Below, piece after piece: positions 1,518-15,084 of a DNA stretch of 16,029 nt. Source of the DNA: a virus; the UHGV virus genome UHGV-0264118; one strand, written 5' to 3'. The stretch's first letter is position 1; each line of letters opens with the position of its first letter. The notes beneath the pieces are model-generated. The model did not search any database. It was not told the origin of the DNA and saw only the letters and a program-made list of their open reading frames with translations. Made by a program: the position numbers and the translations under genes.

Positions 1518-1678
1518 ACAGCCCCCCGTTTATTATTTATCTTCTCAGCCAGCCGCTGTGCTTTCAGTGGATTTCTGATAACAGAAAGGCCGGGAAATAC
1601 CCAGCCTCGCTTTGTAATGGAGTAGACGAAAGTGATCGCGCCTACCCGGATATTATCGTGAGGATGCGTCATCGCCAT
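1490..1678 (-). CDS. Small early-left protein, lambda orf60a-like
   Basis: 62-aa ORF (..[18 protein letters not shown]..) matching recollection of lambda orf60a. Its 5' end overlaps the exo stop by 10 nt. Start may be the ATG at 1672. Confidence 0.6.
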
Positions 1679-2349
1679 TGCTCCCCAAATACAAAACCAA
1701 TTTCAGCCAGTGCCTCGTCCATTTTTTCGATGAACTCCGGCACCATCTCGTCAAAACTCGCTATGTACTTTTCATCCCGCTCAATCACGACATAATGCAG
1801 GCCTTCACGCTTCATGCGCGGGTCATAGTTGGCAAAGTACCAGGCATCTTTTCGCGTCACCCACATGCTGTACTGCACCTGGGCCATGTAAGCCGATTTT
1901 ATTGCCTCAAAACCACCGAGCCGGAATTTCATGAAATCCCGGGAGGTAAACGGGCATTTCAGTTCAAGGCCGTTGCCGTCACTGCATAAACCATCTGGAG
2001 AGCAGGCGGTGCGCATACTTTCGTCGCGATAGATGATCGGGGATTCAGTAACATTCACGCCGGAAGTGAATTCAAACAGGGTTCTGGCGTCGTTCTCGTA
2101 CTGTTTTCCCCAGGCCAGCGCCTTAGCATTAACTTCCGGAGCCACACCGGTGCAAACCTCAGCCAGCAGGGTGTGGAAGTAGGACATTTTCATGTCAGGC
2201 CACTTCTTTCCTGAGCGGGGCTTTGCTATCACGTTGTGAACTTCTGAAGCGGTGATGACGCCGAGCCGTAATTTGTGCCATGCATCATCCCCCTGTTCGA
2301 CAGCTCTCACGTCGATCCCGGTACGCTGCAGGATAATGTCCGGTGTCAT
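1669..2349 (-). CDS. exo: Lambda-type 5'-3' exonuclease (Red-alpha)
   Basis: 226-aa translation ([65 protein letters not shown]...GEQWR) is essentially lambda Exo over its full length. Its start overlaps the bet stop (ATGA). Confidence 0.95.
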
Positions 2350-3131
2350 GCTGCCACCTTCTGCTCAGTGGCTTTCTGTTTCAGGAATCCAAGAGCTTTC
2401 ACTGCTTCGGCCTGTGTCAGTTCTGACGATGCGCGAATGTCGCGGCGAAATATCTGGGAACAGAGCGGCAATAAGTCGTCATCCCATGTTTTATCCAGGG
2501 CGATCAGCAGAGTGTTAATCTCCTGCATGGTTTCATCGTTAACCGGAGTGATGTCGCGTTCCGGCTGACGTTCTGCAGTGTATGCAGTATTTTCGACAAT
2601 GCGCTCGGCTTCATCCTTGTCATAGATACCAGCAAATCCGAAGGCCAGACGGGCACACTGAATCATGGCTTTATGCCGTAACATCCGTTTGGGATGCGAC
2701 TGCCACGGTCCGGTGATTTCTCTGCCTTCGCGGGTTTTGAATGGTTCGCGGCGGCATTCATCCATCCACTCGGTAACGCAGATCGGATGATTACGGTCCT
2801 TGCGGTAAATCCGGCATGTACAGGATTCATTGTCCTGCTCAAAGTCCATGCCATCAAACTGCTGGTTTTCATTGATGATGCGGGACCAGCCATCAACGCC
2901 CACCACCGGAACGATGCCGTTCTGCTTATCAGGGAAGGCGTAAATTTCTTTCGTCCACGGATTAAGGCCGTACTGGTTGGCGACGATCAACAATGCGATG
3001 AACTGCGCATCGCTGGCATCACCTTTAAATGCCGTCTGGCGAAGAGTGGTGATCAGTTCCTGTGGGTCGACAGAATCCATGCCGACACGTTCAGCCAGCT
3101 TCCCTGCCAGCGTTGCGAGTGCTGTACTCAT
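2346..3131 (-). CDS. bet: Red-beta single-strand annealing protein
   Basis: 261-aa translation ([82 protein letters not shown]...) matches lambda Bet. A GAGGT Shine-Dalgarno lies upstream. Confidence 0.95.
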
Positions 3132-3136
3132 CCGTT

Positions 3137-3433
3137 TTATACCTCTGAATCAATATCAACCTGGTGGTGGGCAATAGTTTCAACCATGTACCGGATGTGT
3201 TCTGCCATGCGTTCCTGAAACTCAACATCGTCATCAAACGCACGGGTAATGGCTTTTTTGCTGGCCCCGTGGCGTTGCAAATGATCGATGCATAGCGATT
3301 CAAACAGGTGCTGAGGCAGGCCTTTTTCCATGTCGTCTGCCAGTTCTGCCTCTTTCTCTTCACGGGCGATCTGCTGGTAGTGACGCGCCCAGCTCTGAGC
3401 CTCAAGACGATCCTGAATGTAATAAGCGTTCAT
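3137..3433 (-). CDS. gam: Gam (RecBCD inhibitor), short 98-aa form
   Basis: Translation [60 protein letters not shown]... matches lambda GamS. A good Shine-Dalgarno (CAGGAGTTCAGCCATG) precedes the start. Confidence 0.9.
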
Positions 3434-3508: not shown

Positions 3509-3799
3509 TTAGTGATTCAGGCCGTTACCGCGTCCGTCGAGAAAAACTTCCACGAGCAAATCACGGGTATAAGTGCGCTCGATGCCGCGATGCAGATATA
3601 GCCGTCCGCGTAAATTAGCTGATGCAGTCCAGGTACCATCTTTGTGTTTGACCAGCATTCCTGGCATGACCGCACCTCGATTAACGGTCTGCGTTCCGTA
3701 ATGTTGATGAACCATAAAAACTCCTGCCCGTAAGCTGGGCTGCTGAACATATAGAGACTTCTGCGCGTATTCAGGCGGTGGATGGCCGCCGGTTGTCAT
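3509..3799 (-). CDS. Hypothetical protein in the kil/cIII position
   Basis: Predicted 136-aa ORF (3509..3919) begins at a TTG. The first ATG ([11 protein letters not shown]...) at 3799 gives 96 aa with a weak GAGG upstream. GC-rich, no hydrophobic segment, no cIII-like motif. Family not recognised. Confidence 0.35.
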
Positions 3800-4273
3800 A
3801 ACTAAGCCGCCTCGTTGAAGCGACTGAGGTATGAGGTGTTGAGTTGATTTCAGCTGGTCACACCGACGTTCACACGTCCGTTTCACCCCTCGCACTCCCC
3901 GTAGCCTGCTGAAATTCAAGCTGCAGATCTAAGCGGTCATCGCAACGGTGAAGCGGTAAATCAGAAGATTGCCGCATTCCTGTGCCGTTGTGATGGATTT
4001 ATAATACCTATTGCTATTAATCATATCAATACGTATGGGTATCAATCGATAGCATTTGTTGTTATGCTGTTGATACTGAAAAGAATTTAATGTTGAGGTT
4101 TTTTGTGACATTCGACTCAAAATGGATTTTGCAATTAAATAACCAATTGATAACAATGAAAACATCACGGAGAACTAGATAGGCCAAATTACTTGCCACG
4201 AAGATAGTTGTAAGCGTTGATAACAATGGTATTGAGGAGGGATACCCCCGACAATTGCGTCAGGGGGGAGGGA

Positions 4274-4654
4274 TTATTGGGCTTTAATGTAATTTTTCAA
4301 CTTTGCAGTTTGCTCTACAGCGCTAGGAATGCATCCAAACATATTTGCGCATGAGGTTTGAACAACAATTTCGTTCTTATCGTTTCCTAAAGGTGTTTTT
4401 ACAACCTGATATCCAAGCACGGCACTATTTCCAATAGGAGTGTATGTGGAAATTACCGTTTCATCTGCCATCTGAATTTTCCAACCAGAATTCATTGCTA
4501 TCCAAGCTTTGGCTCTCGACCAATATGTATCGCATTGCTCTTTACCTTGACAGTAAACTGGTTGTTGAGCTTGTGCGGCAATTTGGGGATCTATTTTCTG
4601 AGCACATCCAGAGATGCTAATCAGAATAGCTGCTGTAACGAATAGTTTTCTCAT
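4274..4654 (-). CDS. Lipoprotein, likely lysogen-expressed moron in the rexAB position
   Basis: ORF MSMRKLFVTAAILISISGC|AQ... has an N-terminal signal peptide and lipobox (ISGC). The ATG at 4654 has an AAGGAA Shine-Dalgarno 6-7 nt upstream. Lies 48 nt downstream of, and co-oriented with, the repressor gene. AT-rich relative to neighbours. Confidence 0.6.
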   Translation of the reverse strand: MRKLFVTAAILISISGCAQKIDPQIAAQAQQPVYCQGKEQCDTYWSRAKAWIAMNSGWKIQMADETVISTYTPIGNSAVLGYQVVKTPLGNDKNEIVVQTSCANMFGCIPSAVEQTAKLKNYIKAQ

Positions 4655-4702
4655 TGACATTTCCTTTGTTTTGAATATACAACAAATAAATTGGCAAAAA
4701 AA

Positions 4703-5395
4703 TTATCCGTGTTTTCTATATGTCTGCGGCATGCTTCCAATGACTTTACCGAAGATGAACACCCGGTTCATCTCGTCTTTCTCGATCGGGTCCCACGGTG
4801 AGTAGCTCTTGTTATCAGAGATAACCAGCAGCTTATCCTTCATCATTTGCAGGCGCTTTACATGGGCTGTGTCGTCGTACAGAAACGCATAGATACCATC
4901 ACCGTCGAAAGATTTAACAGTGATATCAACGAACAAAAGATCACCTGGTTCGATCGTTCCTGACATGCTGTCACCGCGTACGTTAATGATGCGGATATTT
5001 TCTGCCTTCCTGCCATCGAACATGTGACGAGCATCGTCAAACGAGTACTCAACCGAGCGTAGAACTTCTACAAACTCACGATTGATGACACCCGGCCCGG
5101 CACTGACTTCTATATCAAGAACGTCAATCTTGAAGTATTTGGAATGGCTGACAGCAGGCTTCCCTGATTGTTGACCGTCATTTCTCATCGGGCCTATGCC
5201 TGATGAGAGCCACTCTGTTCGAACACCCAATGCATTAGCTATTTCAACAATTTTTGTTGAGCCGCGCGCGTTGCCGCTTGTCAGTCTCCAGATTGTGGGT
5301 TGAGCTACGCCAGACGCCTTTGCAAGAGCGCCTTGAGACATTCCAGATTGTTCCATCGCTAGGTTTAAGCGATCAGCAAGAGTTTCTTTTTTCAT
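4703..5395 (-). CDS. cI: CI-type prophage repressor (XRE-family HTH plus S24 LexA-like autopeptidase domain)
   Basis: HTH segment MSQGALAKASGVAQPTIWRLTSG. Ala-Gly cleavage site (EVSAGPG). S24 catalytic motifs GDSM and VKRL. The ATG at 5395 (MKKETLADRL) has no Shine-Dalgarno, consistent with a leaderless PRM-type transcript. The predicted TTG start at 5431 is less likely. Confidence 0.85.
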   Translation of the reverse strand: MKKETLADRLNLAMEQSGMSQGALAKASGVAQPTIWRLTSGNARGSTKIVEIANALGVRTEWLSSGIGPMRNDGQQSGKPAVSHSKYFKIDVLDIEVSAGPGVINREFVEVLRSVEYSFDDARHMFDGRKAENIRIINVRGDSMSGTIEPGDLLFVDITVKSFDGDGIYAFLYDDTAHVKRLQMMKDKLLVISDNKSYSPWDPIEKDEMNRVFIFGKVIGSMPQTYRKHG

Positions 5396-5505
5396 AAGTT
5401 TTAATTTATACGCTTGCGTATTGATGGTCAAAACACGTTTTGCTATTGATTGGGTTAATACGCATTGCTATTATCTATTCATTGCAATACCAATAGGAAT
5501 TGATA
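5396..5505. promoter_or_regulatory. Divergent repressor/cro promoter-operator region (PRM/PR-like)
   Basis: Intergenic region between divergent cI and cro. Near-palindrome ATACGC-TT-GCGTAT at 5408-5421 and related ATACGCATTGCTAT at 5457-5470. Candidate PR: TTGATT (5446-5451), 17-nt spacer, TATTAT (5469-5474). Candidate PRM on the minus strand: TTGACC then about 16 nt then ATAAAT, ending just upstream of the leaderless ATG. Confidence 0.5.
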
Positions 5506-5733
5506 ATGACAAATCAAACCATTCAACTCGCAATCAGTATTACAGGTAGTCAAAAACGACTGGCAGATCTCTGCGGTGTAGCCCAACCCACGGTTTGGCG
5601 TTGGCTACACGGTGGCGGAATTGATGCCCGCTATGTAATGAAAATTGTCTCAGCCACTGGTGGAAAGATTAAACCAGCAGATATTCGTCCCGACCTCGCA
5701 CCATTGTTTAACGTGAGTAATTCTTCCGCCTAA
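5506..5733 (+). CDS. Cro/YdaS-like small HTH regulator
   Basis: 75-aa ORF from the ATG at 5506 (predicted TTG at 5500). AGGA Shine-Dalgarno 7 nt upstream. HTH segment SQKRLADLCGVAQPTVWRW. Divergent from the repressor. Confidence 0.7.
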   Translation: MTNQTIQLAISITGSQKRLADLCGVAQPTVWRWLHGGGIDARYVMKIVSATGGKIKPADIRPDLAPLFNVSNSSA

Positions 5734-8972: not shown

Positions 8973-10499
8973 ATGAAAAAAGCCATAGCATATATGCGAT
9001 TTTCATCACCAGGTCAGATGTCTGGCGACTCATTAAACCGACAGAGAAGACTTATTGCTGAATGGTTAAAGGTAAATAGTGATTATTATCTTGATACCAT
9101 AACATATGAAGATTTAGGATTAAGTGCATTCAAAGGAAAGCATGCACAATCAGGAGCTTTTTCGGAATTTTTAGATGCTATAGAGCATGGTTATATATTG
9201 CCAGGAACTACATTGTTAGTTGAAAGTCTGGACAGACTTTCAAGAGAAAAAGTCGGTGAAGCGATTGAACGTCTGAAATTGATTTTGAATCACGGTATTG
9301 ATGTTATAACTCTTTGCGACAATACAGTCTATAATATTGACTCTTTGAATGAGCCATATTCATTAATAAAAGCCATACTTATAGCACAAAGGGCAAATGA
9401 AGAAAGCGAGATAAAGTCAAGTCGGGTTAAATTATCATGGAAGAAAAAACGGCAGGATGCACTGGAATCAGGTACGATTATGACGGCGTCTTGTCCGAGA
9501 TGGCTCTCCTTAGATGACAAAAGAACGGCTTTTGTTCCAGACCCCGACAGGGTGAAAACTATTGAGCTAATTTTTAAACTCAGGATGGAAAGGCGCTCAT
9601 TGAATGCAATAGCCAAGTATTTAAATGATCATGCTGTAAAGAATTTCTCAGGAAAAGAAAGTGCATGGGGACCTTCTGTAATTGAAAAATTATTAGCGAA
9701 TAAAGCTCTGATAGGTATATGCGTACCTTCATATCGTGCAAGAGGTAAAGGAATAAGTGAAATCGCTGGCTATTATCCCAGAGTCATATCAGATGATTTG
9801 TTTTACGCTGTACAGGAAATTCGGTTGGCACCTTTTGGTATTAGCAATAGTAGCAAAAATCCTATGTTGATAAATCTACTTCGAACAGTTATGAAGTGCG
9901 AGGCTTGTGGTAATACCATGATTGTTCATGCGGTATCTGGAAGTTTGCATGGCTATTATGTTTGTCCGATGAGAAGACTGCATCGATGTGACAGGCCATC
10001 AATAAAGAGAGATTTGGTTGATTATAATATCATTAATGAGTTGCTTTTTAATTGTAGTAAAATCCAACCAGTTGAAAACAAGAAAGATGCTAATGAAACT
10101 TTAGAGTTGAAAATTATTGAGCTCCAGATGAAAATTAATAATTTAATTGCTGCATTATCTGTTGCGCCTGAAGTTACCGCTATAGCAGAAAAAATCAGAG
10201 TATTAGATAAGGAATTACGAAGGGCTTCTGTATCATTAAAAACTTTGAAGAGTAAAGCGGTGAGTTCACTTGGTGATTTTCATGCTATTGACTTAACCAG
10301 TAAAAATGGGCGAGAGCTATGTCGTACACTTGCCTATAAAACATTCGAAAAAATCATAATCAATACAGATAATAAAACCTGTGATATCTATTTTATGAAT
10401 GGCATTGTTTTTAAACACTATCCTTTAATGAAAACAATATCCGCCCAGCAGGCGATAAGTACTCTCAAATATATGGTTGATGGTGAGGTTTATTTTTGA
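8973..10499 (+). CDS. ybcK: Large serine recombinase (YbcK-like)
   Basis: 508 aa. N-terminal resolvase-type catalytic motif AIAYMRFSSPGQ (Y-x-R-x-S nucleophile). C-terminal Cys cluster (CEACGN...CPMRRLHRCD) and a coiled-coil segment typical of large serine recombinases. AGGTG Shine-Dalgarno upstream. Markedly AT-rich gene. Confidence 0.85.
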   Translation: MKKAIAYMRFSSPGQMSGDSLNRQRRLIAEWLKVNSDYYLDTITYEDLGLSAFKGKHAQSGAFSEFLDAIEHGYILPGTTLLVESLDRLSREKVGEAIERLKLILNHGIDVITLCDNTVYNIDSLNEPYSLIKAILIAQRANEESEIKSSRVKLSWKKKRQDALESGTIMTASCPRWLSLDDKRTAFVPDPDRVKTIELIFKLRMERRSLNAIAKYLNDHAVKNFSGKESAWGPSVIEKLLANKALIGICVPSYRARGKGISEIAGYYPRVISDDLFYAVQEIRLAPFGISNSSKNPMLINLLRTVMKCEACGNTMIVHAVSGSLHGYYVCPMRRLHRCDRPSIKRDLVDYNIINELLFNCSKIQPVENKKDANETLELKIIELQMKINNLIAALSVAPEVTAIAEKIRVLDKELRRASVSLKTLKSKAVSSLGDFHAIDLTSKNGRELCRTLAYKTFEKIIINTDNKTCDIYFMNGIVFKHYPLMKTISAQQAISTLKYMVDGEVYF

Positions 10500-14001: not shown

Positions 14002-15084
14002 TTAGAACTGGTAAACCATACCTACAGCAACGATATCATCGGTAGCAACGCCAGATGCTTTCGTGAAATCGCTCTTATCAATCAGGTTGATTTTGTAGTC
14101 AACAAAAGTGGACATATTTTTGTTGAAGTAATAGGTTGCACCTACATCAACATATTCAACCAGGTCCTGATCACCCCAAACACCCAAGTCTTTTCCTTTA
14201 GAATGCAGGTAAGCAACGGATGGACGCAGGCCGAAGTCGAACTGATATTGTGCAACAGCTTCGAAGTTTTGTGCTTTGTTGGCAATATGGTTATTACCAA
14301 AAACAGTCATGTTCTGGGTTTCAGAATAGGTGGTGGCCAGATAGATGTTGTTCGCATCATATTTCAGACCAGCTGCCCATACTTCAGCATTTTGACCAGA
14401 AGCATTCAGACCGTTGTTACCGTAGATAACCTGATTATTAGTGCGATCAGATTTAGCATAGGTTGCACCCACGCCGAATCCTTCATACTCATAAGTAGTT
14501 GAGAAACCGAAACCATCGCCATTAGCTTCAGTTACTTCATTTCGGTCATTTTTGCCCTGATACTGAGCTGCAAAGTTCAGGCCATCAACCAGACCAAAGA
14601 AGTCGTTGTTACGATAAGTTGCAACACCTGTGGTGCGACCAGTCATGAATACATCTGTTTGGGTCCAGGTATCGCCACCGAATTCTGGCAGAACGTCAGT
14701 CCACGCACCGATGTCGTATGCTACACCGTAGTTACGGCCGTAATCGATTGAGCCGTAGTCACCGAATTTCAGGCCTGCAAATGCAAGACGGGTTTTGTCT
14801 TTGGAGGAACCTTGAGATTCAGCGCGGTTGCCTTTGAATTCATATTCCCACTGACCGAAACCAGTCAGTTGATCGTTGATTTGGGTTTCACCTTTGAAGC
14901 CAAGACGGGCATAAGTAGTATCACCATCATCTGCATCATTAGAGGAGAAGTAGTGCTTAGCATTAACTTTCCCGTACAGATCCAGCTTGTTACTGTCTTT
15001 ATTATAAATTTCAGCTGCCTGAGCAGACATCGCCATCAGTACTGATGCAGCTACAGCAGAAATTGCCACTGTTAATTTTTTCAT
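14002..15084 (-). CDS. nmpC: Outer-membrane general porin (OmpC/OmpF family), NmpC-like
   Basis: 360 aa. Signal peptide [23 protein letters not shown]|AEIYNKD. Beta-barrel porin hallmarks and C-terminal ...VAVGMVYQF. Convergent with Q, between Q and the lysis genes. Confidence 0.9.

Follow-up and report, generated by a model that had tools for sequence, protein, structure and literature searches.

The interval from 3940 to 5733 of the virus genome UHGV-0264118 very probably forms a complete lambda-type immunity switch, in which a cI dimer would bind 18-bp operators of the form YAATAS-N6-STATTR. We analysed the whole available stretch of 16,029 nucleotides (the window). Judged from the sequence, the two AT-rich regions that flank the repressor operon are its right (OR) and left (OL) operator/promoter regions. 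The element that both appear to share is an 18-bp dyad with the ideal site TAATAGCAATTGCTATTA, in which the AATA/TATT cores are conserved 12 bp apart. That is, the switch seems to be of the ordinary lambda style, with operators that have seemingly never been written down before.

A first-pass annotation of the same DNA had proposed a repressor, a lipoprotein gene and cro in this interval, and we found this gene layout to be correct:

4274-4660, minus strand: lipoprotein-like moron downstream of cI (lipobox LISISGC; PHROG 16082, function unknown)
4703-5395, minus strand: cI repressor of 230 aa (Pfam HTH_3 and Peptidase_S24)
5506-5733, plus strand: cro, 75 aa, assigned to the YdaS family of HTH proteins

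Among PDB structures, the N-terminus of cI matched the 434 repressor, its closest solved structure (E = 2e-5), as a helix-turn-helix domain, and the C-terminus matched UmuD' as an S24 autopeptidase. The translation shows the Ala-Gly site (SAGPG), the serine (GDSM) and the lysine (VKRL). The divergent genes cI (minus strand) and cro (plus strand) are separated by a 110-bp gap, and the control regions have a GC content of 31-40%, versus 45% for the whole window. OR and OL lie in register with a predicted divergent PR/PRM pair and with a predicted distant PL, as in the lambdoid layout. By analogy with BTP1, where cI and bstA form one operon with a single transcription start (PMC7067206), the lipoprotein gene is probably co-transcribed with cI.

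For the 18-bp sites we directly observed where they lie, what their statistics are, how far they are conserved and that they accompany the DNA-binding domain. Only five 18-mers in the 16-kb window match the consensus at 11 or more of its 12 positions (starting at 4002, 4027, 5406, 5456 and 5485), and all of them are located in OR or OL. Isolated clusters of half-sites also exist, for example at 9600-9950. At a threshold of at least 10/12, the two regions contain seven sites versus 0.33 in dinucleotide-preserving shuffles, none of which reached seven (0 of 5000). An independent position weight matrix (PWM), for which solely type A and type C OL sites from other phages were used, placed 4002, 5485, 5456, 5491, 4027, 4047 and 5431 as the top seven positions of the window. 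In an unbiased seed search, OR and OL of seven lineages (1.6 kb) were compared with 57.7 kb of their flanks. At widths of 18, 12 and 8 the best seeds all came from OL1/OR1 (ATTGCTAT core), and the seed AATACCTATTGCTATTAA gave 54 foreground versus 4 background matches with up to 5 mismatches.

At OR, the sites and the predicted promoters are arranged as follows:

5403-5408, minus strand: predicted PRM -10, TAAATT (promoter scan)
5406-5423: OR3, TTATACGCTTGCGTATTG, 11/12
5426-5431, minus strand: predicted PRM -35, TTGACC (promoter scan), abutting OR2
5431-5448: OR2, AAACACGTTTTGCTATTG, 10/12, with a weak left half (4/6) and a perfect right half
5446-5451, plus strand: predicted PR -35, TTGATT (promoter scan), its TTG being the last three bases of OR2
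5456-5473: OR1, TAATACGCATTGCTATTA, 12/12
5469-5474, plus strand: predicted PR -10, TATTAT (promoter scan)
5485-5502: candidate fourth site 'OR4', CAATACCAATAGGAATTG, 11/12

OR3, OR2 and OR1 are spaced by 25 bp over the predicted PRM and PR, and OR1 fills the PR spacer and overlaps the predicted PR -10. OR3 is nearly invariant across lineages, and the Klebsiella phage, BTP1 and ST104 have the same OR2 sequence. The PR -35 reads TTGCTT in most relatives. The predicted PRM -10 sits 7 nt before the cI ATG, which suggests that cI is probably translated from a leaderless mRNA; this distance is kept in the Klebsiella phage and ST104 with differing sequence. Among 26 distinct OR variants, all found behind an identical cI, 6 of 48 half-site columns were variable, compared to 7 of 24 in the centres and 11 of 25 in the spacers (Fisher p = 0.004), and three of the six half-site changes remain within Y or R. 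'OR4' is located downstream of the predicted PR start, over the cro Shine-Dalgarno. Natural variation in this site does not leave the consensus (C or T at position 1, G or A at position 18). The Klebsiella phage retains the site, as do, in part, BTP1/ST104 and the Yersinia phage. Since its right half overlaps the Shine-Dalgarno, this overlap could explain the conservation. OR2, 'OR4' and OL3 (below) are weak or confounded sites.

On the left side, there are three further candidate operators and a predicted promoter:

4001-4006, minus strand: predicted PL -10, TATTAT, overlapping the left half of OL1
4002-4019: OL1, TAATACCTATTGCTATTA, 12/12, the top match of the PWM from other phages' OL sites
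4024-4029, minus strand: predicted PL -35, TTGATA, its TTG being the CAA of the left OL2 half-site
4027-4044: OL2, CAATACGTATGGGTATCA, 11/12, 25 bp centre to centre from OL1
4047-4064: OL3 (weak), CGATAGCATTTGTTGTTA, 9/12, PWM 10-11 bits, 2 bp after OL2

OL1 is identical to OR1 at 16 of 18 positions. The OL3 position carries a better site in the Klebsiella phage (TGATAGCAATGGCTATTA) and in BTP1 (TAATGGTTTTTGTTATTA). The order OL1-7 bp-OL2-2 bp-OL3 aligned without gaps in 78 loci, with invariant AATA/TATT cores and varying centres and spacers. The OL lineages in this alignment share 46-64% identity over 140 bp and 50-74% over the operator core; since they are diverged homologues and not independent inventions, part of this conservation reflects shared ancestry. 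The promoter scan gave TTGATA-17-TATTAT (10/12) for the predicted PL, an arrangement that recurs in the Klebsiella phage, in BTP1 and in both type A and type C OL regions. PL, PR and PRM were all placed in register with the operators, as in lambda. Since promoter-like sites were no more common in the scan than in shuffles (4 versus 4.3), these assignments rest on position and conservation and not on scan statistics. The leader from PL to kil contains no gene, and we asked whether it could encode a put antiterminator RNA like those of HK022 or HK639. This candidate was rejected: no Rfam family reached the gathering score, the fold z was -1.5, and the leader resembled neither the sequence that follows PL in HK022 nor the putL-like RNA annotated in HK639.

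The operators follow the DNA-binding domain across mosaic backbones. We examined phages that share this domain, namely 4A7 (E. coli; 4A7/Perceval), PhiR68_2, Klebsiella ST11-VIM1phi8.2, the Salmonella phages BTP1 and ST104, Fraca and Yersinia vB_YenM_21.09. In every one of them (N-terminal domain 64-100% identical), clusters of sites with at least 11/12 were present at OR and OL with the same spacing. These seven lineages were compared with four heteroimmune control regions from which the operators are absent: PhiR5_1 and PhiR26_1, which have the same S24 half and a different N-terminal domain, HK639 and HK022. No site of at least 11/12 was found anywhere in the 6-7 kb examined of PhiR5_1, PhiR26_1 and HK639, and the single such site in the 6-7 kb examined of HK022 is about 2 kb away from its operators. 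Dyads of other kinds occupy OR and OL in all four.

The first-pass annotation had also drawn attention to a word, TTGATA, as a possible operator motif of both regions. Its central idea, that an OR-like and an OL-like region share a repressor-operator motif, agrees with the sequence; the motif itself appears to be the 18-bp dyad instead of TTGATA. The strings it named are present, with GTATTGATGG at 5418, CTATTGATTGG at 5443, AATTGATAATG at 5498 and the near-palindrome ATACGCTTGCGTAT at 5408-5421 in OR, and TTGATAACAATG at 4147 and 4217 and TTGATACTG at 4070 on the OL side. The near-palindrome turned out to be the core of OR3. Its proviso that TTGATA should exceed chance was borne out as well: within 3940-4273 and 5396-5510 we counted 6 copies of TTGATA/TATCAA versus 0.64 +/- 0.78 in 5000 dinucleotide-preserving shuffles, none of which reached 6. 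The remaining 15.6 kb contain 10 copies, and other AT-rich 334-bp stretches of the window at most one each. Since operator ends (...TATTG) supply the TTG of -35 hexamers (TTGATA at PL, TTGATT at PR), the enrichment is mostly a by-product. TTGATA is mostly a composite of operator ends running into -35 hexamers and A/T-rich spacers, to which a conserved box at 4070 and a pair of 12-mers are added:

4070-4088: conserved TTGATA box plus AAAAGAATT, 5 bp beyond OL3 and at about -78 from the predicted PL start
4147-4158: 12-mer TTGATAACAATG, first copy of an exact repeat
4217-4228: 12-mer TTGATAACAATG, second copy

The operator model leaves the most conserved OL block, the TTGATA box, and the 12-mer pair unaccounted for. 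The box is invariant in five diverged OL lineages. As to the 12-mers, an exact repeat of at least 12 nt arose in 0.5% of shuffles, so that the pair is unlikely to be due to chance. It exists only in this rare OL variant. No dyad partner at operator spacing was detected for either copy; the stretch 4218-4234 (TGATAA-CAATG-GTATTG) is operator-like with a centre that is 1 bp too short. A tie of the pair to the lipoprotein gene was rejected, as homologues with 83% identity (two loci) have another 3' flank without the pair. It is not widespread either: a scan of genome contigs gave only 7 unrelated matches in other phyla. A role of the box as -35 hexamer for rightward transcription was also rejected. 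By hand reading, BTP1 and type C alone have a plausible -10 after it, and no gene runs rightward from there in types A and B.

Two readings of the box were considered, an IHF-type architectural site and a weak extra operator. Tentatively, the OL-side copies at 4070, 4147 and 4217 may be sites for host IHF (TATCAA as the core of WATCAANNNNTTR) and not for the repressor. Scored against this consensus and not a matrix, the only perfect match of the 16-kb window is located at 4140-4152 (minus strand), overlapping the first 12-mer. The box matches at 8/9 here and at 9/9 in type A and the Klebsiella phage (read by hand), and the second 12-mer copy (4217) at 7/9 (hand count). In addition, the box is flanked by the A/T tract GAATTTATTTT, a block also found upstream of lambda OL3 and in HK639, and stimulation of lambda PL by IHF is reportedly established (Giladi et al. 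1992 and 1998, as cited elsewhere). However, the portion of the box site that should read NNNNTTR coincides with OL3 and the spacer, and 5 of 7 lineages deviate from it. Type C matches at just 6/9, and the box lies inside the immunity-specific module, where PhiR5_1 and PhiR26_1 have an operator-like repeat of their own at the same position.

Equally tentatively, the box may supply the left half-site for a fourth, weak operator at OL (TGATAS-N6-GAATTW, 24 bp from OL3) with cooperative cI binding. The candidate in this genome, TGATAC-N6-GAATTT at 4071-4088, is laid out like an operator and, at 9-10/12, is on a par with OL3 and OR2. The box reads TGATAGCAA, the extended half-site, in types A, BTP1 and ST104, and HK639 and PhiR26_1 carry a likeness of their own half-site at the same place. 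Against this, the right half (GAATTW) belongs to a block common to heteroimmune phages and lambda, the TTGATA at 4070 is a poor half-site (2.8 bits on the half-site PWM), and the box is more conserved than the real operators, which would be unusual for a weak auxiliary site. An arrangement of four operators per side instead of the three of lambda (adding 5485-5502 and 4071-4088), in which the TTGATAACAATG pair would add sites of low affinity or for host factors that are peculiar to this OL variant, is rather unlikely. If true, it would mean a post-initiation or translational hold on cro by the repressor (or Cro), and an extended OL array of a kind not described for lambda.

That the TTGATA-containing word itself is a repressor half-site, common to OR and to 4070, 4147 and 4217, is very improbable. 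ATTGAT and TTGATA are indeed the two most enriched hexamers of the OR and OL cores versus the rest of the window (unbiased k-mer comparison), and TGATAG is a tolerated half-site variant in OL3 of the Klebsiella phage and in OL1 of Fraca and of one further locus (L011). However, literal TTGATA occurs in only one of the three OR strings, the other two reading TTGATG and TTGATT, and each string consists of the outer end of an operator (GTATTG, CTATTG, GAATTG) plus the DNA that follows. This following DNA is not conserved among relatives with the same repressor: CTATTGATTGG is replaced by CTATTGCTTGG in 64 of 80 loci, and the Klebsiella and Salmonella versions of the strings read GTATTAC/GTATTAA and AATTGGAACATG/GAATAAGCAATG. 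The OL-side copies that had been taken for operators all fall outside OL1-OL3 (4002-4064), which the earlier reading had missed. On the half-site PWM, TGATAACAA and TGATACTGA reached 5.2 and 2.8 bits (ranks 109 and 233), and in the cross-lineage search no TTGATA seed was among the top ones or rivalled the 18-mer. Chance, for which the AT-richness of the regions could speak, was virtually ruled out as the source of the motifs, since shuffles never matched the observed counts of TTGATA or of the 18-mer, no other AT-rich stretch held more than one TTGATA, and the sites are conserved in register across genera.

Returning to the lambda-type switch with 18-bp operators, we infer the following for cI binding, promoter activity, cooperativity and regulatory outcomes. 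A cI dimer would bind the two-fold symmetric YAATAS-N6-STATTR operators. On the right side, OR1 would cover the PR spacer and -10, OR2 would overlap the PR -35 and abut the PRM -35, and OR3 would lie inside PRM. On the left side, OL1 would fill the PL spacer and -10 and OL2 would overlap the PL -35, with the weak OL3 next to it. If the switch works as in lambda, PR and PL would be shut once OR1/OR2 and OL1/OL2 are occupied by repressor, PRM would be aided by the repressor bound at OR2, and occupation of OR3 would limit cI. The presumed leaderless PRM transcript would make cI and run on into the lipoprotein gene. Cro would act on the same sites as cI, and RecA-stimulated self-cleavage by the S24 domain would lead to prophage induction.

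The immunity module is common. Numerous E. coli genomes, among them LF82/NRG857C (Perceval), NC101 and ST131, carry its cI-cro core, the module is present at roughly 500 IMG/VR loci, and the same DNA-binding specificity is expected in the Salmonella prophages ST104 and BTP1, the latter studied for its unusually high spontaneous induction. The operator map (consensus, positions, promoter overlaps and the probably leaderless cI) provides testable sites for footprinting, reporters and engineering, and predicts cross-immunity among E. coli, Salmonella and Klebsiella phages. It adds nothing conceptually to the lambda paradigm. It does illustrate that a visually striking word such as TTGATA can be the shadow of operator ends overlapping -35 hexamers.

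Among known systems, HK022 was suggested as a reference by the GenBank record of ST104, which labels its cI and cro 'similar to HK022'. We rejected it: the HK022 cI is 40% identical over the whole protein, and its operators are GAAC/GTTC dyads. In HK639 the N-terminal domain of cI is 57% identical and OL has the same TGATA(A/G)CTAAATGAATTTATTTTT block as here, but the operators are ATAACC/GGTTAT dyads. No YAATAS-N6-STATTR site was found at OR or OL of HK022 or HK639, nor were HK022-type GAAC...GTTC sites found at OR or OL here. A pattern search for ACAA-N6-TTGT (434), ANTNAAG-N4-CTTNANT (P22 c2) and TATCAC-N5-GTGATA (lambda) gave no match in OR/OL, so none of the known operator types of lambda, 434, P22 c2 and HK022 is present in the control regions. 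The 434 system shares a dyad-symmetric operator for a dimeric HTH protein and provides the closest structure to the cI N-terminal domain. However, its 14-bp operators (ACAA-N6-TTGT) differ from the 18-bp operator in length and half-site.

Close DNA relatives are the E. coli lambdoid phages 4A7/4C10 (Bievrevirus), Perceval of LF82 and PhiR68_2, with 96-97% identity over cI-OR-cro and the same backbone (gam, kil, cII-like, O, P). In contrast, their OL is the diverged type A, 63% identical over 140 bp, with a clear terminator and other accessory genes behind it. Neither the lipoprotein nor the TTGATAACAATG pair is present in these phages. The P22-like Salmonella phages ST104, BTP1, SE1 and ST160 have been assigned an 'ST104-type' repressor specificity at a threshold of at least 92% identity over the whole repressor (Villafane et al. 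2008, PMC2629481). Compared to the ST104/BTP1 group, the 74 N-terminal amino acids of cI are 88% identical, and the HTH stretch MSQGALAKASGVAQPTIWRLTSGNARGSTKIVEIANALGV is identical, but the whole protein is 86% identical. At OR and OL of that group the same operators recur, equally ordered and spaced, with OR2, OR3 and the TTGATA box among the shared elements, and these shared operators speak for a specificity that may be the same. As in BTP1, cI is followed by an accessory gene. ST104 and BTP1 differ in having a podovirus backbone, an N-like gene 24 after PL, bstA as the downstream gene and a weaker fourth OR site (TTATACGAAAGGGAATAA). In the literature searched, the ST104-type specificity is listed as unstudied and without an operator sequence. 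In the accessible part of it, with most subscription journals outside its scope, we found neither a published operator definition for BTP1, ST104 or Perceval nor the operator strings.

Compared to lambda, the operators differ in being 18-bp YAATAS-N6-STATTR sites instead of 17-bp TATCACCGCCAGTGGTA sites, of which none is present, and in their spacing, with uniform steps of 25 bp in OR and steps of 25 bp and then 20 bp in OL. Also unlike in lambda, a candidate fourth site lies over the cro ribosome-binding site, Cro belongs to the YdaS family and the cII-like protein to the YdaT family, and there is no N gene between PL and kil. What is shared with lambda is the architecture: divergent cI and cro around a region of roughly 110 bp, three dyad operators on each side over PR/PRM and PL, OR2 abutting the PRM -35, a probably leaderless cI mRNA, a repressor composed of HTH and S24 parts with Ala-Gly, Ser and Lys, an accessory gene after cI in the position of rexAB, and the GAATTTATTTT block upstream of OL3.

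The window belongs to a lambdoid prophage of E. coli; 3900-5760 is 100% identical to E. coli strain 504239. Gene annotation gave the following order:

1669-3433, minus strand: exo/RecT/gam
3509-3715, minus strand: kil, KilR-like
about 3953-4273: AT-rich region, with a gene-free leader between kil and this region
4274-4660, minus strand: lipobox protein gene
4703-5395, minus strand: cI repressor, HTH_3 and Peptidase_S24 domains
5506-5733, plus strand: cro, YdaS family, after a 110-bp gap from cI
right of cro: YdaT-family cII-like gene, then O and P

The first-pass annotation, which had placed a repressor operon between OR-like and OL-like regions, was therefore right at the gene level. Accessory genes are exchanged between the stop codon of cI and OL (4274-4702; also in compared loci L001, L002, L083, L084, L085 and L104). 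A lipoprotein gene occupies this position in both the window and PhiR26_1; 4A7 has ASCH together with a hypothetical gene there, PhiR5_1 a HipA-like pair, BTP1 BstA, and the Klebsiella phage a ParA-like gene. Elsewhere in the window, a 508-aa large serine recombinase (8973-10499, plus strand; Resolvase, Recombinase and zinc-ribbon domains) is encoded in the nin region, far from the usual integrase position, and 14002-15084 (minus strand) is a prophage-borne Gram-negative porin gene (Porin_1, E = 4e-152), as is NmpC in Perceval of LF82.

TTGATA had been proposed as an operator motif shared by the OL side (3940-4273) and the OR side (5396-5510) of the operon. All strings quoted in support are present at their positions, and the enrichment is real: together the two regions contain six copies of TTGATA/TATCAA (4024 and 4040 on the minus strand, 4070, 4147, 4217 and 5500) versus 0.64 expected from dinucleotide shuffles (0 of 5,000 reached six), and the other 15.6 kb of the window contains ten. 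ATTGAT and TTGATA were the top two enriched hexamers of the OR and OL cores relative to the remainder of the window. An operator-like element is indeed shared, but side-by-side comparison of the two regions revealed a match much longer than TTGATA, and the true element is an 18-bp dyad. OL1 and OR1 are identical at 16 of 18 positions, have two-fold symmetry (TAATAC...CTATTA) and each lie within the spacer of a sigma-70 promoter predicted by promoter scan:

4029->4001, minus strand: predicted PL, TTGATA-17-TATTAT
5446->5474, plus strand: predicted PR, TTGATT-17-TATTAT
5431->5403, minus strand: predicted PRM, TTGACC-17-TAAATT
4002-4019: OL1, TAATACCTATTGCTATTA
4027-4044: OL2, 25 bp from OL1
4047-4064: OL3, weak
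5406-5423: OR3, 25 bp from OR2, containing the palindrome noted in the first pass
5431-5448: OR2, dyad copy 25 bp from each neighbour
5456-5473: OR1, TAATACGCATTGCTATTA
5485-5502: candidate fourth OR site, CAATACCAATAGGAATTG, 11/12 to the consensus

The consensus of these putative operators is YAATAS-N6-STATTR. CAA/TTG is frequent beside the half-sites, and the ideal site with these additions, TAATAGCAATTGCTATTA, is almost realised in phage Fraca. Only five 18-mers in the 16-kb window match at least 11/12 (at 4002, 4027, 5406, 5456 and 5485). Sites of at least 10/12 number seven in the two regions versus 0.33 in shuffles, and the seven best window matches to a position weight matrix (PWM) built solely from OL sites of other phages all fall there. 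Isolated operator-like half-sites are also loosely clustered in the serine recombinase gene (9607-9950), which is probably a chance occurrence.

As the shared motif itself, TTGATA did not hold up. When the control regions of seven lineages were searched for seeds against 57.7 kb of flanking DNA, the best seeds at widths 18, 12 and 8 all derived from OL1/OR1 and TTGATA seeds were uncompetitive; overlapping and palindromic counts, together with the relatedness of the sequences, inflate the p-values of this search, and only the ranking was used. Its copies are mostly operator ends and -35 elements: the outer TTG of an operator doubles as a -35 start and its TATTA as a -10 (TATTAT), and this overlap generates TTGAT words. 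The 4024 copy is the predicted PL -35, whose TTG coincides with CAA in the left half-site of OL2, and the 4040 copy consists of GTATCA, the right half of OL2 (CTATTA or GTATTG in other lineages), together with an A. TTGATG at 5421 and TTGATT at 5446 are G-ending right halves of OR3 and OR2 continuing into the spacer, the latter being the PR -35 (TTGCTT in 64 of 80 relatives). The 5500 copy arises where the possible fourth site ends on the right (GAATTG) and continues into ATAATG, the cro start; there the Klebsiella phage has TTGGAACATG and the Salmonella phages AATAAGCAATG. Two elements go beyond this overlap, the TTGATA at 4070 and a repeated 12-mer.

We compared 80 IMG/VR loci with identical cI, and also 4A7, PhiR68_2, Klebsiella ST11-VIM1phi8.2, BTP1, ST104, Fraca and a Yersinia phage. 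OL exists in three versions in the E. coli loci (types A, B, as in the window, and C) and in two more in the Klebsiella and Salmonella phages, with just 46-64% pairwise identity over 140 bp among the five. In 78 loci, OL aligned without gaps as OL1-7 bp-OL2-2 bp-OL3-5 bp-TTGATA, with invariant AATA and TATT cores and variable centres and spacers. The same cI is accompanied by 26 distinct OR variants, in which 6 of 48 half-site columns vary, compared with 7 of 24 in N6 centres and 11 of 25 in spacers (Fisher p = 0.004); of the six half-site changes, three exchange one Y or one R for another. Where cI is identical, variation in the otherwise near-identical DNA is greatest in the short stretches separating operators (5449-5455 and 5475-5476; the OL1/OL2 spacer and OL2/OL3 joint in L001-L082), including the PR -35 (TTGATT, TTGCTT or TTGTTA).

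It is the DNA-binding domain of cI that the sites accompany, rather than the phage backbone: clusters of sites of at least 11/12 occur at OR and OL in all lineages with 64-100% identity in the cI N-terminal domain. PhiR5_1 and PhiR26_1 have a cI C-terminal half of ~96% DNA identity and a different N-terminal domain; the HK639 N-terminal domain is 57% identical and HK022 cI 40% over the whole protein. No site of at least 11/12 was found in the 6-7 kb examined of PhiR5_1, PhiR26_1 and HK639, and the one in HK022 lies about 2 kb from its own operators; these four phages show other dyads (GGTTGT.., ATAACC/GGTTAT, GAAC/GTTC). Many hundreds of the 2,213 matching E. coli genomes encode heteroimmune repressors whose S24 half has ~96% DNA identity to that of the window's cI (4704-5154), which indicates a recombination joint inside cI, between the DNA-binding and cleavage domains.

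Located 29 bp from OR1, the candidate fourth OR site follows the predicted PR start and covers the cro Shine-Dalgarno. Its natural variants stay within the consensus (C/T at position 1, G/A at position 18); the Klebsiella phage retains it (CAATACTTATAGGAATTG) though the preceding 11 bp differ, and BTP1/ST104 and the Yersinia phage retain it partly. Because its right half may be conserved only through ribosome-binding site content, we put a fourth OR operator at somewhat below an even chance.

Five to six lineages share the 4070 TTGATA without change, with AAAWGAATT after it and a fixed distance of 5 bp from OL3. That it is a weak fourth OL operator seems rather unlikely: it has operator geometry (TGATAC-N6-GAATTT, 9/12, 24 bp from OL3), reads TGATAGCAA in several lineages, and HK639 and PhiR26_1 have sequences resembling their own half-sites at the same position, but its right half belongs to a block, GAATTTATTTT, also upstream of OL3 in lambda and HK639, and its half-site PWM score is low. 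An IHF site, predicted by consensus match only, is about as likely as a fourth operator; the other strand (TATCAA-N4-AT-A) matches 8/9 of the IHF core WATCAANNNNTTR, type A and the Klebsiella phage match 9/9, and an A/T tract adjoins the box. IHF reportedly stimulates lambda PL (Giladi et al. 1992 and 1998). Just right of the box, the word TTTTGTGAC is common to the window's OL variant and type A. Type A, the common variant, has a strong terminator (CCCGGCCACCGTGCCGGG then a T run, minus strand); in the window's variant (4090-4273) no recognisable intrinsic terminator follows the lipoprotein gene.

The exact 12-mer repeat TTGATAACAATG (4147-4158 and 4217-4228, 70 bp apart; equalled in just 0.5% of shuffles) is unlikely to be a primary repressor site. 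Both copies lack a dyad partner at N6 spacing, and 4218-4234 (TGATAA-CAATG-GTATTG) is operator-like but one base too short. The pair is confined to the window's OL variant, in 12 of 5,426 complete E. coli genomes (all 100% identical) and two IMG/VR contigs, and was not found as a pair in other enterobacterial species representatives. The first copy is overlapped by the sole perfect WATCAANNNNTTR core in the window (4140-4152, minus strand). The pair is not linked to the lipoprotein gene.

Following the lambda paradigm, cI dimers would bind cooperatively at OR1/OR2 and OL1/OL2, blocking PR and PL; at OR2, which abuts the PRM -35, cI might activate PRM, and OR3, between the PRM -35 and -10, would serve negative autoregulation of cI. 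Cro would presumably use the same sites. The repressor has the cleavage-site residues alongside its HTH and S24 domains, and SOS-activated RecA would trigger its S24 self-cleavage. The predicted PRM -10 lies 7 nt from the cI ATG, a distance kept in the Klebsiella phage and ST104 despite different sequence, which predicts a leaderless cI mRNA. No terminator was found between cI and the lipoprotein gene 42 bp downstream, and the two are probably co-transcribed; in BTP1, cI-bstA is one operon with a single start (PMC7067206). From the predicted PL start (about 3994) to kil there is no N-like antiterminator gene. The intervening leader (3716-3994, minus strand, ~280 nt) is 96-98% conserved in 4A7-like phages; it matched no Rfam family, its fold was not significant (z = -1.5), and it resembled neither the annotated HK639 putL-like RNA nor the DNA that follows HK022 PL.

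The repressor's likely specificity group comprises Salmonella ST104/BTP1/SE1/ST160, Klebsiella ST11-VIM1phi8.2 and E. coli 4A7/4C10/Perceval. The ST104 repressor has been described as a separate, unstudied specificity (Villafane et al. 2008, PMC2629481). Neither the LF82 nor the BTP1 papers examined give operator sequences, and a full-text literature search with the operator strings returned nothing relevant; since most older phage literature lies outside its reach, these operators may have been described earlier. The operator map is not surprising and should be useful for work on BTP1, ST104 or Perceval. In every respect of a lambdoid immunity switch that can be judged from sequence the window agrees, and its switch would work like that of lambda, which it also resembles in the predicted leaderless cI mRNA and in the GAATTTATTTT block upstream of OL3.
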